DNA of 14,235 nucleotides from assembly GCA_031372065.1 (NCBI GenBank), contig JANMKN010000392.1:1-14235 (forward strand). The letters are read 5' to 3'. The notes under the pieces are model-generated. The model saw only the letters and a list, made by a program, of their open reading frames with translations. It made no database searches and was not told where the DNA came from. A program made the position numbers and the translations under genes. This DNA is from Abditibacteriaceae bacterium (GTDB taxonomy: Bacteria > Armatimonadota > Abditibacteriia > Abditibacteriales > Abditibacteriaceae). Below are positions 2,030-14,235 of this stretch, one piece after another; within the stretch, counting starts at the first letter, position 1; every line of letters begins with the position of its first letter.

Positions 2030-2563
2030 TTAGCGCAAAATCGAGGCGCCAAAAACGAATTGTTCGACGAGAGAACTAAATTCAGCGGCGGCGGCGCTGA
2101 TGAACGAAGAAATAATATCGTTCAATTCATCTTCGTTCAAACCTGCGAGTGGACGCTGATGGCGCAGGAAAACGCCATCGTTGCTAACCGCGAATGCAGC
2201 ATTGACCACGCGCATATTGGATTCGAGCAACGCACGATAAAAAGCCAGCAAGTTTTGCGCGGGCAACGGGCCAAGGCGCATCACGGCTTCAATGTAATCT
2301 ATTTCGTCATCTTCCTCTTCGGCGCGTTTAAGGCGCAAGACAACGGATGCCGGTTGCGCTGGCACAATCCACAATCCAGAATCGGATTTGTAGGCCTGCA
2401 CTACATCCAAACCGCGCGCGCGTAGCACGTCGGTTATCACATCGTGGTAAATTTCGAGCGCATCTGGTGGCAGTTCTGTCTCGGTGGCGCGTGAATCAGG
2501 CATAAAGAAGTGGGCGGCGCTCTTTTTATCGTCTTTTAAATCATCTTTTTTGACCATTATCAT
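2030..2563 (-). CDS. YbjN/CesT (T3SS-chaperone-like fold) protein
   Basis: Acidic 177-aa protein with ...LGPLPAQNLLAFYRALLESN...AAFAVSNDGVFLRHQRPLAGLNEDEL, typical of YbjN-like domains. ATG 2563 overlaps the upstream TGA (ATGA), with a GAGGTG RBS. Confidence 0.75.
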   Translation of the reverse strand: MIMVKKDDLKDDKKSAAHFFMPDSRATETELPPDALEIYHDVITDVLRARGLDVVQAYKSDSGLWIVPAQPASVVLRLKRAEEEDDEIDYIEAVMRLGPLPAQNLLAFYRALLESNMRVVNAAFAVSNDGVFLRHQRPLAGLNEDELNDIISSFISAAAAEFSSLVEQFVFGASILR

Positions 2564-3735
2564 GCAAGCACCTCGTTTTTGGACTGTTCGGCTTGAACAC
2601 GATCTGCCTGAAGTTCTTCGCTTTGTGACAGCGCGCATTTACTGTTGGATTGCAAGGTGTTGGCTTTTAAATTACCCAAAACCGTGCCACAATGACCGCA
2701 GCACAACCAGCTTGAACAAAGCAACCAACTTTCCGACCCGTTTAAAAAGCCGCAGTCAGCGCAATAAAGGCGTGCTTCTAAGTCGTCAAGTTGTGGCTGC
2801 AAAACTTGCAACGCTTCCAAAATATAATGCATCGGCAACGCGAAACGAATGCCTTCTTCGGGACGGCCCCACAAATTGACGCCGATGACATCGCCATCTT
2901 TGGTGAGCAACGGCCCGCCGGAGTGTCCGGCATGAATGGTGGTGTCGGTTTGGATGTAATGCACGCCGCCAATAATACGATCCAGACTGCTGACAATACC
3001 GCGTGAAACGCTACCCACGAGATCGGTTTGCATGGGCGTGCCAATGGCGTAAACCGGCTGTCCGATGGACAAAGGCACATGGTTGTGCAACGTAAAAAAA
3101 TCATCGCGTGGCGGGCCTTGCACAAAAGCATAATCCAAAGCCGTATCGGAAAACAAAATGCGTCCTTCGTTTTCTGTGCCATCTTCGAAACGCATACAAA
3201 CTGTTTCACTGTCTTCAACCACATGGCGCGCCGTTAGCACCAAACCAGAAGGATCAATAACGAGGCCACTGCCATGCCCATCGGCCAGTTTGACCAGCAC
3301 TGTGGCGCGACAAGCGTGCAAAAGCATATCTTCGAGTGAGGCAAAGACTGGCGTTTTTGTTTTCGGCGTAGCATTTGGAGAAGTAAGGCGTTTCATTACG
3401 GTTTTTGCGAGAGGAGCAGTGGCTTTTTCGGCAGCAGGAGCGCCGTTTTTGCGCGATGTCACGCTGCGTAGTTGGATGGCATCGTCCAAATTTTGAACTC
3501 CGGTAGGTGGAGGCAAACATTGCACGCCTACGGCATCTAAGGCCGCTGCTACACGCCGCACAGTTTGGGCGCTGTGTTTTTGATACCCACAGCGTTTCAA
3601 CAAGCCCCGTAAGGTGGTTTGCTGACCAGTTTTGTGGCTGCTTGTTACTTCGTGTGCAATGTGTTGAGCAACTTCGCTCAAGTCGTTATGGGCCAGTTTA
3701 CTGGGAGGTTTGGTCTTTTGTTTGGGCGCAGCCAT
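2560..3735 (-). CDS. cytoplasmic trypsin-like (S1C/Trypsin_2) serine protease with an N-terminal extra domain and a C-terminal Cys-rich zinc ribbon; no PDZ domain
   Basis: GHGSGLVI, VLTARHVV (His), LDYAFV (Asp), IQTDTTIHAGHSGGPL (Ser); YCADCG...CCGHCG. AGGAG RBS before ATG 3735; no signal peptide. Confidence 0.9.
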   Translation of the reverse strand: MAAPKQKTKPPSKLAHNDLSEVAQHIAHEVTSSHKTGQQTTLRGLLKRCGYQKHSAQTVRRVAAALDAVGVQCLPPPTGVQNLDDAIQLRSVTSRKNGAPAAEKATAPLAKTVMKRLTSPNATPKTKTPVFASLEDMLLHACRATVLVKLADGHGSGLVIDPSGLVLTARHVVEDSETVCMRFEDGTENEGRILFSDTALDYAFVQGPPRDDFFTLHNHVPLSIGQPVYAIGTPMQTDLVGSVSRGIVSSLDRIIGGVHYIQTDTTIHAGHSGGPLLTKDGDVIGVNLWGRPEEGIRFALPMHYILEALQVLQPQLDDLEARLYCADCGFLNGSESWLLCSSWLCCGHCGTVLGNLKANTLQSNSKCALSQSEELQADRVQAEQSKNEVLA

Positions 3736-3783
3736 GAGAAATATGCTCCTGTCGAAGAACACTCAGCAAAAGCCGCGCCGAAA

Positions 3784-3850
3784 GGCAGTGGGCAGTGGGC
3801 AGCGGTCGGTGGGCAGTGGGCAGAAAGAGAGAATGCTTTCTGTCCATTGT
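3784..3850. repeat. 7-mer tandem repeat (GGCAGTG x5-6) with short inverted arm
   Basis: ggcagtg ggcagtg ggcagcg gtcggtg ggcagtg ggcag at 3784-3823; GGGCAGAAAG pairs with CTTTCTGTCC (3836-3845). Confidence 0.85.
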
Positions 3851-9822: not shown

Positions 9823-9831
9823 TGCTATACT
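9823..9831 (+). promoter_or_regulatory. extended -10 promoter (TGcTATACT) for the acc operon
   Basis: TGnTATACT ends 10 nt before ATG 9842 in a 55-bp divergent spacer; flanked by GCGCAG (9811-9816) / CTGCGC (9835-9840). Confidence 0.5.
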
Positions 9832-9841
9832 GCCCTGCGCC

Positions 9842-10306
9842 ATGAGCTTTTCTTCGAGTTTTTCTGTGCCCACAGTGCGCGCCATTGCAAAGTTGTTGGA
9901 CGAGGCGCAACTCAGCGAAATTGTCATCGAAACGGACGGCGCCCACGCGCCGCAGCGTCTTGTCGTGCGGCGCGAAGTCACAATGATTAGCAAGACTCCG
10001 TCTGGGGCGGTAGCGACTCCTACGGCGGAAGTTGCCACAGAAACGCCGCCCACAACCGACAGCAATTTAGTGATGGTGCCTTCGCCGACAGTCGGCTATT
10101 TTCATCACATGGAAAAACCTGTCGGCATGGGCGGTGCAGTGCGCGCCGGACAGACCATCGGCAATGTCGAAACGATGGGAATTCCCAACGATGTGGCCGC
10201 TTCGGTAGAAGGTCGCGTCGTTGAAATTTTGGTGGCCGAAGGGCAGGGCGTCGCCTTTGGTCAACCACTCTTCGTGATTGAAAAAGAATCGCCAAAGGAG
10301 TCGTAA
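9842..10306 (+). CDS. biotin carboxyl carrier protein (AccB)-like protein lacking the biotinylation lysine
   Basis: N-terminal IAKLLDEAQLSEIVIE, Ala/Pro/Thr linker, VPSPTVGYF...V..GQTIGNVETMGIPNDV.A...GRVVEILV..GQ.V.FGQPLFVI. This is the AccB architecture but with ETMG in place of EAMK. Confidence 0.88.
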   Translation: MSFSSSFSVPTVRAIAKLLDEAQLSEIVIETDGAHAPQRLVVRREVTMISKTPSGAVATPTAEVATETPPTTDSNLVMVPSPTVGYFHHMEKPVGMGGAVRAGQTIGNVETMGIPNDVAASVEGRVVEILVAEGQGVAFGQPLFVIEKESPKES

Positions 10307-10307
10307 G

Positions 10308-10859
10308 ATGCAATTTCAAAACGCGCAACGGCGCGGGCAATCGCTGGTTGGCATTTTGGTTTCGGTGTTTCTGATGATTGGCTTGGCCGTGTTTTTTCTG
10401 ATGCCGCGCGGTGGCAACGATGGCAAGCCCGGCAAAACTGTTCTGAAAAAGAGCATGGAACGGGCGCAAGATGTCGGCACGACCTCTTATGTTAGCCAAA
10501 TTCAGCAGGGCATTGACCAGATCAAATCGGATAACGACGGCAAACCGCCCGCTTCGCTGGAAGAACTCAAGCATTCTTTGAAAGATTATCCACCGGAAAT
10601 GTGGATTAATCCCGTTGATAAAAAACCGTTGCTTTACAATGCGGTAACAGGCACCATTTGCGAGGACAAAGGCACGGGTTGCCCGCCGGGCAGCGCGGCG
10701 CCTGTGGCGGCTCCGGTGGCACCGGGCGCCAACCCGGCGGCCCCCGGTTCAGCGCCTCCCTCTCCTTCTGGCCCCAGCAGTTCGGTTGGCCCCGGTGGTA
10801 TTCACATGAATATCCCCCAACCCGGCGCGGGCGCAGCGGATGCGATGAAAGACAATTAG
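10308..10859 (+). CDS. pilin/pseudopilin-like membrane-anchored protein with Pro/Ala-rich tail
   Basis: MQFQNAQRRG|QSLVGILVSVFLMIGLAVFFL (class III signal-like), helix, PPASLEEL...INPVDKKPLLY, Cys pair, low-complexity tail; AAGGAG RBS. Confidence 0.65.
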   Translation: MQFQNAQRRGQSLVGILVSVFLMIGLAVFFLMPRGGNDGKPGKTVLKKSMERAQDVGTTSYVSQIQQGIDQIKSDNDGKPPASLEELKHSLKDYPPEMWINPVDKKPLLYNAVTGTICEDKGTGCPPGSAAPVAAPVAPGANPAAPGSAPPSPSGPSSSVGPGGIHMNIPQPGAGAADAMKDN

Positions 10860-10931
10860 GTGGTGATGTGGTTGGGTGGTTAGGTTGTTGATTTAACCAC
10901 CCAACCACCCAACCAACCACCCAGCCATCTA
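10857..10931. repeat. inverted 8-mer short-repeat element
   Basis: taggtggt gatgtggt tgggtggt taggttgt facing aaccaccc aaccaccc aacc aaccaccc agccatct. Confidence 0.85.
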
Positions 10932-10935
10932 TATT

Positions 10936-12279
<1,344 letters not shown>

Positions 12280-12280
12280 G

Positions 12281-12355
12281 CAGTAGACGGTGGTCCGTGT
12301 TCAGTGAGCAGTAAATGCATTCTCTGACCACTGACCACCGATCCCTGACCACTGA
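12281..12355. repeat. inverted 7-mer short-repeat element (CTGACCA-type)
   Basis: Degenerate cagtaga cggtggt ccgtgtt cagtgag cagt facing ctgacca ctgacca ccgatcc ctgacca ctga. Confidence 0.8.
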
Positions 12356-12356
12356 A

Positions 12357-12764
12357 ATGGGCAAACGACGCAGCGGGCGAGAATTAGCTTTTCGTCTCTT
12401 ATTTCAAGCTGATGTGGGCAATTTAACGCTCGCCGAAGTCTTCTCGACGGGCCGCGAGGCCAGCGAAGCGACGGAAGAAGTTTGGCAATTCGCCACCGAA
12501 CTGGCGCGTGGTGCGTGGGAAAACCGTGCGGAAATAGACCCGATTATCACACGGTTTGCTTCCGGCTGGACGCTGGAGCGCATGGCGAATGCGGATCGCA
12601 ATCTTTTGCGTTTGGCGCTTTACGAAATCACGCAACGCGACGATATTCCGCAAAGCGTGAGCATCAACGAAGCCGTCGAACTCGCCAAAAAATACTCGAC
12701 AGCCGATTCCGCCAAATTCATCAACGGCATTTTAGGCTCCTTTGCCCGCGAAGGAGATAAATAG
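12357..12764 (+). CDS. nusB: transcription antitermination factor NusB
   Basis: MGKRRSGRELAFRLLFQ, WTLERMANADRNLLRLALYE, VSINEAVELAKKYS...KFINGILG. Confidence 0.97.
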   Translation: MGKRRSGRELAFRLLFQADVGNLTLAEVFSTGREASEATEEVWQFATELARGAWENRAEIDPIITRFASGWTLERMANADRNLLRLALYEITQRDDIPQSVSINEAVELAKKYSTADSAKFINGILGSFAREGDK

Positions 12765-12852: not shown

Positions 12853-13704
12853 ATGCAACTTCTTGATGGCAAAATCGCTTCGGCGGCAATTTACGAGCAA
12901 TTGCGCGAGCAAGTAGCGCAACTCAAAGAACGCGGCATCACGCCCGGACTCGGCACCATTTTAGTGGGCGATGACCCCGCCAGCGCGACTTATATCGGCG
13001 CCAAGCATCGCGCTTGCGAAGACATCGGCGTCGCTTCGATTCATCGCCAGTTGCCTGCCGCTATTTCGCAAGCAGAACTGCACGCCGAAATAGAAAACTT
13101 CAACAACGACGCGGCGGTGGACGCTTATATTATTCAACTGCCACTGCCCAAAGGCTTAAACGAAGAAGCGGCGCTTTTGGCGATGTCGCCCGACAAAGAC
13201 GCCGACGGTTTGCATCCTGTGAACTTGGGCCGCCTCGTGATGGGCGCATCTGGCCCGATTCCTTGCACGCCAGCGGGCATTGTCGAGCTTTTGGTGCATT
13301 ACGGCGTGCCGATTGAAGGGCGCCATGTAGTGATTGTCGGACGCGGCCTCACAATTGGCCGCCCGTTGGCCTTGCTTTTGGCTTTGAAGCGCCCGAACTG
13401 CAACGCGGCGGTCAGCGTGGTGCATACCGGCGTGAAAAATTTGGCCGATTACACGCGCCAAGCCGATATTATCGTGGCGGCAGCCGGTGCGCCCAATTTA
13501 ATCACGCCCGATATGATAAAACCCGGCGCGGCAGTAGTCGGCGGCGGCATCACGCGCGATGGCAGAAAAATTCTCTCGGATGTTGATGAAAGCGTCGGCG
13601 AAGTAGCCGGTTTCGTCACGCCGCGCATCGGCGGCGTCGGCCCGATGACCGTGGCGATGCTGCTTAAAAATACCGTTCTCGCCGCGCAAAAGCGAGTTTC
13701 CTGA
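12853..13704 (+). CDS. folD: bifunctional methylenetetrahydrofolate dehydrogenase/cyclohydrolase
   Basis: MQLLDGK, PGLGTILVGDDPASATY, IIQLPLP, KDADGLHP.NLGRL, PCTPAGI, TPRIGGVGPMTVAML. Confidence 0.97.
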   Translation: MQLLDGKIASAAIYEQLREQVAQLKERGITPGLGTILVGDDPASATYIGAKHRACEDIGVASIHRQLPAAISQAELHAEIENFNNDAAVDAYIIQLPLPKGLNEEAALLAMSPDKDADGLHPVNLGRLVMGASGPIPCTPAGIVELLVHYGVPIEGRHVVIVGRGLTIGRPLALLLALKRPNCNAAVSVVHTGVKNLADYTRQADIIVAAAGAPNLITPDMIKPGAAVVGGGITRDGRKILSDVDESVGEVAGFVTPRIGGVGPMTVAMLLKNTVLAAQKRVS

Positions 13705-13811
13705 GCGATGCGTGTAAGCGTTTCTTCACAGTAACAACCCTTTGTAAAGAAGCAAACTTGTTTGGCGACGAAGGAAATTCGCTTAAAATCAAGGAATTTT
13801 CCTTAAATCTA

Positions 13812-13893
13812 ACCCAAGTTGCTACTTATGGGTGGTGGCGATGGAGGTATAAGTCAAGAAACCAGCTTGCAGTAAGTAGGTAGCAACTTGGGT
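13812..13893. mobile_element. 82-bp MITE with IS630-type ends and TA target duplication
   Basis: TA|ACCCAAGTTGCTAC (13812-13825) ... GTAGCAACTTGGGT (13880-13893)|TA. The same end sequence occurs next to the transposase at 14068. Confidence 0.8.
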
Positions 13894-14066
13894 TAATTTT
13901 GCCTGCCGGAACCTTAATTCTATTCACCGGAACTCTAATTTGGCTCGCGGCAACCCTAATTCTCTTGGCGGGAACTCTAATTCTGTTCACCGGAACCTTA
14001 ATTTTGCCCACCGGAACCTTAATTCTGTTCACTGGAACTCTAATTTCTCCTACCGGAACCTTAATT
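13893..14066. repeat. 8 x 21-bp degenerate tandem repeat (YTAATT-N9-GGAACY)
   Basis: Units start at 13893, 13914, 13935, 13956, 13977, 13998, 14019 and 14040, with a partial unit at 14061; exact 21-bp period and no indels. Confidence 0.95.
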
Positions 14067-14067
14067 A

Positions 14068-14235
14068 ACCCAAGTTGCTACTGCCTCAAACGGTAGGATT
14101 TGATAGAGTGGGGTAAAGCCTCCTGAGTTTGATTCTGGCGTCTTGGTTTGTGAAGTGCCAGTTGATTTTGGCGGTGTTGGCATTTCGATTGTCCTGCCAG
14201 AGTTGGACGGCGTGTTGGACTTGTGGGCGAGTGAG
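14068..14235 (-). mobile_element. IS630-family insertion sequence, right end (continues beyond window)
   Basis: TA followed by terminal repeat ACCCAAGTTGCTAC (14068-14081), immediately downstream of the transposase stop codon. Confidence 0.8.
14086..14235 (-). CDS. IS630-family transposase, C-terminal 49 aa
   Basis: Manual translation LTRPQVQHAVQLWQDNRNANTAKINWHFTNQDARIKLRRLYPTLSNPTV* matches the IS630 C-terminal signature W..RN.....INW.FT..DARIKL.RLYP. Confidence 0.88.
   Translation of the reverse strand, partial: LTRPQVQHAVQLWQDNRNANTAKINWHFTNQDARIKLRRLYPTLSNPTV

Follow-up and report, generated by a model that had tools for sequence, protein, structure and literature searches.

The window analyzed here, a stretch of 14,235 nucleotides of DNA from an Abditibacteriaceae bacterium, contains in its accC operon a gene for a protein that is built like the biotin carrier BCCP but has no lysine to accept biotin. 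[quoted passage not shown] In ordinary bacteria, the C-terminal domain of one BCCP carries biotin between two active sites and also docks on a non-catalytic site of biotin carboxylase. The locus raises the question of what a carrier that cannot carry biotin does beside the gene for biotin carboxylase.

The gene occupies positions 9842 to 10306 on the plus strand, and its frame is intact, encoding 154 amino acids without stops. The product (P0001) is a BCCP paralogue, which we named AccB2. As the preliminary description of this DNA had stated, the codon at positions 10178 to 10180 is GGA, encoding Gly113. This residue lies inside the hairpin motif E110-T-M-G-I-P-N (positions 10169 to 10189, plus strand), and the sequence and the alignment to E. 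coli BCCP place it opposite the biotinylated Lys122. The only lysines of AccB2 are residues 17, 51, 92, 148, and 152, and none is in the hairpin. The thumb loop has a 5-residue deletion relative to E. coli BCCP, with His at position 92, and in a test for the conserved Tyr92 and Pro97 of functional BCCP, AccB2 lacked these features. Residues 79 to 146 matched Pfam Biotin_lipoyl with an E value of 6.7e-11, and AccB2 scored 67.2 bits against the BCCP family TIGR00531, below the curated cut-off of 115.2. With no lysine, no thumb, and a score under the family cut-off, AccB2 is not a functional BCCP.

The AlphaFold model of AccB2 (mean pLDDT, 83.6) has an N-terminal helix-strand-strand domain at residues 9 to 43 (positions 9866 to 9970, plus strand; helix 9-21, strands 26-31 and 38-43), a low-confidence linker, and a biotinyl-type domain. 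Its closest structural match was E. coli BCCP (1bdo), and its profile aligned with the N terminus of E. coli BCCP. In this three-part architecture and in its fold, AccB2 is like the bacterial AccB/BCCP proteins (E. coli; PDB 1BDO, 4HR7, and 8UXZ; TIGR00531). A lipoyl domain of a 2-oxo acid dehydrogenase was ruled out. In such domains, which are usually fused to an E2 core, a D-K-A type motif places Lys at the tip of the hairpin; the AccB2 hairpin has no lysine, and the best matches are BCCP.

The glycine codon was checked against sequence runs. No difference appeared along the stretch in a contig from run X1, which is possibly the source of the window itself. Run X2, obtained from another sample of the same study, gave a contig over positions 10092 to 10292, likewise with 0 differences, GGA codon included. 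The earlier judgment that a single sequencing error was unlikely was borne out: the second-sample contig has the same codon and not AAA or AAG, which ruled out a sequencing or assembly error. The lysine site of the three same-genus AccB2 orthologues is occupied by Ala, Gln, and Arg, so that none of these close relatives has Lys, and accB2 is not decaying. A pseudogene or decaying duplicate was ruled out by the open frame in 59 orthologues and by dN/dS values of at most 0.34.

It had been reasoned that a canonical accB must lie elsewhere, and it was found at C161:14923-15411, upstream of hom-thrC, where a lysine-bearing stand-alone carrier (AccB1) is encoded. The genome has six biotin/lipoyl-domain matches, and a motif scan of the genome located Met-Lys carriers in pyruvate carboxylase, in the stand-alone AccB1, and nowhere else. 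One accA, one accD, and one birA are present. Since AccB2 has no biotin site and the genome holds one stand-alone Met-Lys carrier and a single accA, accD, and birA, AccB1 must be the ACC carrier. Both AccB1 and AccB2 have kept the N-terminal domain.

Both copies were found in 56 of the 61 Armatimonadota genomes searched. AccB2 was seen without AccB1 in three genomes (G007, 92% complete; G030, 72%; G059, 80%), and AccB1 without AccB2 in two (G010, 63% complete; G017, 84%). All five are fragmented assemblies, and the single copies may reflect missing data. Most copies were classed by their neighboring genes: 42 AccB1 by hom, and 55 AccB2 by accC or orfX (an open reading frame downstream of accB2). 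In G032, where the two copies adjoin, position decided; 9 AccB1 and 3 AccB2 with no neighbor in the retrieved stretch were classed by score, and six further AccB1 were added from a profile search. In 11 pairs compared over the whole gene, dN/dS was 0.07 to 0.34 for accB2 and 0.09 to 0.34 for accB1. Thus accB2 is under purifying selection, as the preliminary description had suggested checking; the C-terminal domain of AccB2 evolves somewhat faster than that of AccB1.

The lysine site itself has not been lost uniformly. Ten residue types occur there among the 59 AccB2 orthologues, 20 of which have Lys, and the four species of this genus have Gly, Ala, Gln, and Arg. The idea that the lysine loss is fixed in the AccB2 family was rejected on these grounds. 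The expectation that the loss would be conserved in relatives held for the loss of Tyr92 and the thumb and for the docking residues, which are constant, but not for the lysine. Since the lysine site drifts while accB2 persists, the conserved thing is the gene and not the absence of lysine. Met-Lys is kept in 8 of the 59 AccB2, four of which have full thumb length, and some of the Met-Lys copies have sequences that could still allow biotinylation. Many more thumb-less AccB2 with Met-Lys (ESMK) were seen among pattern-selected loci, which were kept out of the frequency counts; this locus scan used a narrower AccB2 alignment, which favors Met-Lys copies, since the broad one varied too much.

The docking contacts of E. 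coli BCCP, as given in the supplement of PMC11160672, are Val88, Met121, Met123, Pro145, Glu147, and Phe148. According to the same paper, these contacts lie at a non-catalytic site on biotin carboxylase and AccD, and Pro145 and Glu147 are described as almost completely conserved (PMC11160672). At the six positions, the AccB2 of the window has kept V88, M121, and F148, with Ile at 123, Gly at 145, and Ala at 147. Val84 (positions 10091 to 10093, plus strand) corresponds to E. coli Val88, a biotin carboxylase contact at the non-catalytic docking site, and the motif G-V-A-F at residues 136 to 139 (positions 10247 to 10258, plus strand) corresponds to P145-V146-E147-F148, with Phe139 as the docking aromatic. 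Both assignments draw on conservation and on the predicted interface described below.

When the positions were scored in E. coli BCCP numbering across the Armatimonadota copies, AccB1 and AccB2 were seen, at the level of sequence, to have lost opposite surfaces. An aromatic residue at position 148 was present in 59 of 59 AccB2 and 0 of 58 AccB1, and all 56 two-copy genomes were complementary at this position, although the genomes are related and the trait counts are not independent events. Met-Lys with full thumb length was found in 58 of 58 AccB1. Tyr92 was kept in 57 of 58 AccB1 and in only 4 of 59 AccB2, being lost in 55 of 59. On the docking side, Val88 was present in 58 of 59 AccB2 and 29 of 52 AccB1 (the AccB1 of this genome included), Glu147 was present in 54 of 59 AccB2 and 26 of 52 AccB1, and Leu replaced Pro145 in 47 of 52 AccB1 and 0 of 59 AccB2. 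In AccB2, position 121 was hydrophobic in 59 of 59 and position 123 in 56 of 59; such hydrophobic flanks around a drifting lysine are what one would expect of contact residues. Conservation in AccB2 is highest at fold glycines and AccC-docking residues. A literature search turned up no publication describing a lysine-less BCCP in bacteria or a reciprocal loss of this kind; studies of subunit evolution could already mention bacterial cases.

The accD gene (G000:C319:24114-24896, minus strand) deserves mention as an observation of its own. Compared with E. coli AccD, its product appears to be shorter by about 12 N-terminal residues, with some uncertainty about the start; in E. coli, these residues fix AccD to the biotin carboxylase dimer. 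With a short AccD, ACC may be assembled here in another way than in the E. coli tube. The AccD residues in contact with Pro145 and Glu147 may then be absent, which would fit the losses of AccB2 at 145 and 147.

The split extends to Chloroflexota. In the locus scan, Ktedonobacter genomes had a lysine-less copy after efp and a Met-Lys, non-aromatic copy adjoining fabF. Among 71 evenly drawn Chloroflexota genomes, 45 had a match at an E value of 1e-12 and 26 had none. A first pass over the 45 and two further Ktedonobacteria gave 21 genomes with a pair, 13 with AccB1 only, 10 with one complete carrier, and 3 others, which had only thumb-less carriers of other enzymes. For the 13 AccB1-only genomes, the prediction was that an AccB2 had been overlooked; one was then found in 13 of 13, 7 after efp and 6 between accA and accC, all without Lys and with an aromatic residue at 148. 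In total, 34 genomes had the split pair and 10 had a single complete carrier in the efp/xseA slot. The Chloroflexota copies were classed by lysine and aromatic residue, which makes those two counts circular, but the neighbors and Val88 are free of this: AccB1 adjoined fabF in 32 of 34 genomes, and Val88 was present in 0 of 34 AccB1 and 34 of 34 AccB2. The 10 complete-carrier genomes had no second strong full-length match. Weak extra matches were seen in three single-carrier genomes (G074:C1, G099:C2, and G127:C46, with E values of 3e-11 or weaker) and in G123; other extra matches, which were inspected, were thumb-less Met-Lys carriers of other carboxylases.

In three other phyla, used as controls, 72 of 72 stand-alone carriers kept V88, Y92, P97, MK, and the aromatic residue at 148 in one protein; these came from 85 evenly drawn genomes centered on genomes named Gastranaerophilaceae, Rhodoferax, and Opitutaceae, the 3 center genomes having been found by a pattern that contained the docking motif. 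The remaining 13 genomes had no stand-alone match, and weak domain matches in long frames were omitted. An initial set of 132 canonical carriers was set aside in favor of this sample, as it was biased: AccB2-profile matches had been filtered for MK, thumb, and Tyr92.

In a quick tree built from all columns, AccB1 formed one branch with an SH-aLRT support of 97. When the trait columns were removed, 37 of the 38 AccB1 of both phyla still grouped (support of 86 in an unrooted tree of few columns), and AccB2 formed no resolved group, with 4 changes. The grouping of these sequences suggests that the AccB1 of both phyla share one old origin. The Atlas has a similar cluster from Vulcanimicrobiota. 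Three Gastranaerophilales-type loci (L176, L178, and L184) encode BCCP-like proteins by accC with Ile-Lys for Met-Lys and Ile at position 88; judging from these residues, they are possibly another carrier variant.

The preliminary description had proposed modeling a complex with AccC, and the prediction placed the AccB2 C-terminal domain on it. The score was 0.85, against 0.00 for the best of 3 controls; 116 of 157 solved complexes reached the mark, as did 2 of 215 mismatched pairs, but since a like complex has been solved (PDB 4HR7), the score shows likeness and may reflect memory. The runs agreed in 100% of contacts, and the pLDDT of the partner was at least 90. The predicted interface joins AccC residues 49-53 and 64-72 to Val84 and Ala138/Phe139 of AccB2, which is the known non-catalytic site, and the lowest-error contacts run from G-V-A-F (136-139) to AccC 49-52. 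AccB2 is thus predicted to bind AccC at the known docking patch. On the AccC side, the patch (residues 49-53 and 64-72, about positions 11080 to 11151) has kept Val49, Ile51, Pro53, and Ile72, and across 28 AccC proteins V/I49, I/V51, and P53 were each found in 28 and I72 in 25.

The gene context is also conserved. The accC gene for the biotin carboxylase of ACC (positions 10936 to 12279, plus strand) scored 684 bits against TIGR00514, with a cut-off of 626.5. It is followed on the same strand by the rest of the conserved gene run, nusB (positions 12315 to 12764) and folD (ending at position 13704), in the same gene order as in the named Armatimonadota loci, which read efp, membrane protein, accB2, orfX, accC, nusB, and folD. 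In 20 relatives, efp lies upstream of accB2. The preliminary description had placed the gene at the usual accB position in the accC operon; the slot is indeed that of accB, with efp upstream and accC-nusB-folD downstream, but orfX separates accB2 from accC. Single complete carriers of other phyla likewise come after efp and before accC, and therefore the ancestral accB site is taken by AccB2, and the copy that was displaced is AccB1. In one genome (L053, G032:C26:10800-16800), both paralogues stand in one run of efp, accB2, accC, nusB, and then accB1, a possible trace of the original duplication.

The intervening orfX (positions 10308 to 10859, plus strand) encodes a pseudopilin-like protein of 183 amino acids that has a type IV pilin-type leader, then a hydrophobic segment at the N terminus, and a tail rich in Pro. 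Pfam and NCBIfam searches gave no match to it, and among its Atlas matches are clusters containing N_methyl in 20% of members and T2SSG in 24%. It is kept downstream of accB2 and before accC in 53 genomes of Armatimonadota, and it probably has no part in the function of ACC. In many Armatimonadota, efp and accB2 flank a membrane protein of about 370 to 390 amino acids without a Pfam match (L032:1906-3081, minus strand; L117-L195), with 17 such ORFs upstream of accB2 in 16 genomes; it is absent from the window.

An extended -10-like box, TG-n-TATACT, is found at positions 9823 to 9831 (plus strand), ending 10 nucleotides before the accB2 start codon. A -10-type hexamer was present 6 to 10 nucleotides upstream of the accB2 start in 25 of 25 own-family orthologues and in the same placement at 77 of 18324 random ATG/GTG sites of the genome, the hexamer pattern having been chosen after the sequences had been seen. 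From its sequence and placement, the box is likely to serve the accB2 operon as a promoter, giving a transcript with a short leader or none. A generic promoter scan did not list it.

In E. coli, the N termini of BCCP were modeled as a central beta-barrel in which docked copies hold the moving copy (PMC11160672, section 8); the barrel is a model fitted to weak density (PMC11160672). On balance, we think it probable that in the present system the carrier has been subfunctionalised, with AccB2 as the docked anchor and AccB1 as the biotin arm, linked by a mixed N-terminal oligomer. Based on profiles, the structure model, orthologues, dN/dS, and the predicted complex, accB2, which lacks the lysine and the thumb, is proposed to encode the docking or anchor subunit of ACC. 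With Val84 and Phe139, AccB2 would rest on the docking patch of AccC, as predicted, and would co-assemble with AccB1 via the shared N-terminal domain, thereby tethering it. The biotinyl domain of AccB1 would travel between AccC and AccAD and would not stop at the docking site. As far as its residues alone can tell, AccB1 could not dock by itself, and both genes would be needed. We propose that because the docking face of AccB1 was lost, AccB2 became necessary, and a biotin-free protein has thus been kept phylum-wide in the accC operon. Several findings count against this division into anchor and arm. The AccB2 of the window has lost Pro145 and Glu147 and has Ile for Met123, Val88 is still present in 29 of 52 Armatimonadota AccB1, five genomes have one copy, and 8 of 59 AccB2 have Met-Lys. 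In addition, NMR of the plant proteins placed BADC contacts on the thumb side of the BCCP1 C-terminal domain (PMC11926652), a geometry that the anchor and arm model does not include.

On the other hand, AccB2 may be a negative regulator, a decoy on AccC or in the BCCP oligomer that lowers flux, as has been considered for plant BADC. The preliminary description had left the choice between a scaffold and an inhibitor of AccC; the sequence indeed has no biotin site, binding to AccC is predicted, and the scaffold is favored over the inhibitor because the true carrier has lost docking residues. A decoy would suit a protein that has no biotinylation site, is predicted to bind AccC, and has its own conserved promoter-like box in the accB2 family, and in vivo plant studies summarized in PMC11926652 suggested inhibition by BADC. 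However, a pure inhibitor leaves unexplained the loss of the aromatic residue at 148 in 92 of 92 true carriers (58 from Armatimonadota and 34 from Chloroflexota), a residue kept by 82 of 82 single carriers. The predicted AccB2 site is the non-catalytic one, and co-transcription with accC, as the gene order implies, suits a stoichiometric subunit. We consider a purely negative role rather unlikely, although anchoring and activity tuning by AccB2 could be compatible.

Less probable still is that AccB2 serves mainly as an adaptor for a PII-type regulator, a membrane protein, or neighboring ORFs, with AccB1 held in the complex otherwise. PII is bound by plant BADC and BCCP according to the plant literature consulted, and two neighbors are conserved around Armatimonadota accB2, the membrane protein in 16 genomes (17 ORFs) and the pseudopilin-like ORF in 53. 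Yet the Chloroflexota loci have the same split without those neighbors, and the top-conserved positions of AccB2 are fold glycines and AccC-docking residues, so that we give the adaptor role little credence. Even less can be said for AccB2 as a second, lineage-dependent carrier that is biotinylated where Met-Lys is kept and is a dispensable leftover elsewhere. Lys in 20 of 59 copies, Met-Lys in 8 of 59, and the many thumb-less ESMK copies of the locus scan would agree with such a carrier, but lysine-less copies have been kept in two phyla under purifying selection, and the site, with ten residue types overall and four within one genus, resembles a free surface position. The thumb Tyr and Pro are required for E. 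coli BCCP to function (Cronan 2001, as cited in PMC11926652), while Tyr92 is lost in 55 of 59 AccB2; we regard this reading as very improbable. That accB2 is a decaying duplicate or its glycine codon an assembly error has next to no chance of being right, since the faster evolution of the AccB2 C-terminal domain and the sub-cut-off TIGR00531 score are set against a frame open in 59 orthologues, a dN/dS of at most 0.34, and the same codon in a second sample.

Compared with E. coli BCCP, the proposed anchor AccB2 keeps V88, a hydrophobic residue at 121, and an aromatic residue at 148, but unlike E. coli BCCP, it lacks Lys122 and Tyr92 with the thumb, and the functions are apparently shared with a second, oppositely reduced gene. 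The nearest counterpart is found in plants. Just after the position equivalent to Glu147, plant BCCP1 has an aliphatic residue, and BADCs have an aromatic one. At the Glu147-equivalent position itself, which is Lys165+25, Arabidopsis BCCP1 carries Ser190 (PMC11926652), and this serine hints that the same reciprocal loss has occurred in the plant sequences. BADCs are non-biotinylated BCCP paralogues, described in PMC11926652 as unique to the plant enzyme. They associate with BCCP's N-terminal region and have been reported both as an inhibitor and as a "glue" for BC-BCCP, a matter in dispute (PMC11926652). Like BADC1-3 (biotin attachment domain-containing proteins) of the heteromeric ACCase of plant plastids, AccB2 is a BCCP paralogue without a biotinylation motif beside a true carrier in the same ACC system. 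Unlike plant BADC, it is bacterial, stands in the ancestral accB slot, is usually thumb-less, and has kept the Lys in a third of Armatimonadota. The earlier suggestion of a bacterial analogue of plant BADC is supported as an analogy, in that a motif-less paralogue coexists with a biotinylatable AccB1; by this comparison AccB2 is likely an analogue, and membership in the BADC family is not claimed. The sampled Cyanobacteriota had one complete carrier in 23 of 23, and therefore descent of BADC from the AccB2 family is not expected. Tentatively, and with our confidence falling a little short of even, we suggest that an ancient duplication common to Armatimonadota and much of Chloroflexota produced an obligate pair of anchor and arm, giving a five-subunit ACC, and that plant BADC/BCCP is a convergent repeat in which BADC restores a lost dock.

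The actinobacterial epsilon subunits AccE and PccE are small proteins that are unrelated to BCCP and act on the carboxyltransferase side. They are described as non-catalytic and required for assembly of the acyl-CoA carboxylase holoenzyme (PMC11926652; PMC13118682), and AccB2, proposed as a non-catalytic assembly subunit, is likened to them by description only. In Chloroflexus aurantiacus ACC, a BC-BCCP fusion is biotinylated on Lys553 (PDB 8HZ4; PMC11077971), and a BCCP-linked beta-barrel organizes the complex (PMC11077971). This enzyme is likewise a Chloroflexota system with more than one BCCP-type domain; unlike AccB2, its extra carrier is fused to BC and biotinylated, and the account of the complex in PMC11077971, in the parts consulted, describes no lysine-less stand-alone paralogue.

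A dummy carrier of the BADC type is thus not confined to plants and occurs in nearly every sampled Armatimonadota genome and in many Chloroflexota. The residues supply a rationale for it, in that the dummy retains docking residues no longer present in the working carrier. Whether it is a scaffold or an inhibitor can be tested on four or five small proteins from bacteria and with single substitutions, and the same test suggests itself for plant BCCP and BADC. The two paralogues separate the docking surface of BCCP from its catalytic surface, which is impossible in single-carrier models like E. coli. Annotation pipelines call both genes accB, or accB2 hypothetical.

Other proteins with BCCP-like domains were encountered in the searches. 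P0002, P0003, and P0004 have, by eye, a TIR-like N-terminal part and two to four tandem BCCP-like domains, some of which have no lysine. P0006, a protein of 233 amino acids, has an N-terminal BCCP domain followed by two tandem lysine-less biotinyl-type domains; a search started from it for Fusobacteria-like lysine-less carriers found nothing.

The window has further features outside the accB2 gene. Upstream of obg, an ORF on the minus strand (positions 2030 to 2560) encodes a YbjN/CesT-type chaperone-like protein, and the adjoining minus-strand ORF (positions 2560 to 3762) encodes a trypsin-like protease with a C-terminal zinc-ribbon-like motif. Between orfX and accC, positions 10859 to 10927 contain hairpin-like short repeats of the GGTT and AACC types, with arms of 21 to 22 nucleotides that are 86 to 90% complementary, and similar 7-nucleotide repeats occur at positions 3784 to 3823 and 12324 to 12355. 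At positions 13805 to 14082, a 21-nucleotide unit is repeated in 7.7 copies (positions 13906 to 14066) between perfect 19-nucleotide inverted repeats. A third copy of the 19-nucleotide repeat is found at position 13810, and 8 other partial matches occur in the genome; from its sequence, the array looks like a small non-autonomous repeat element.
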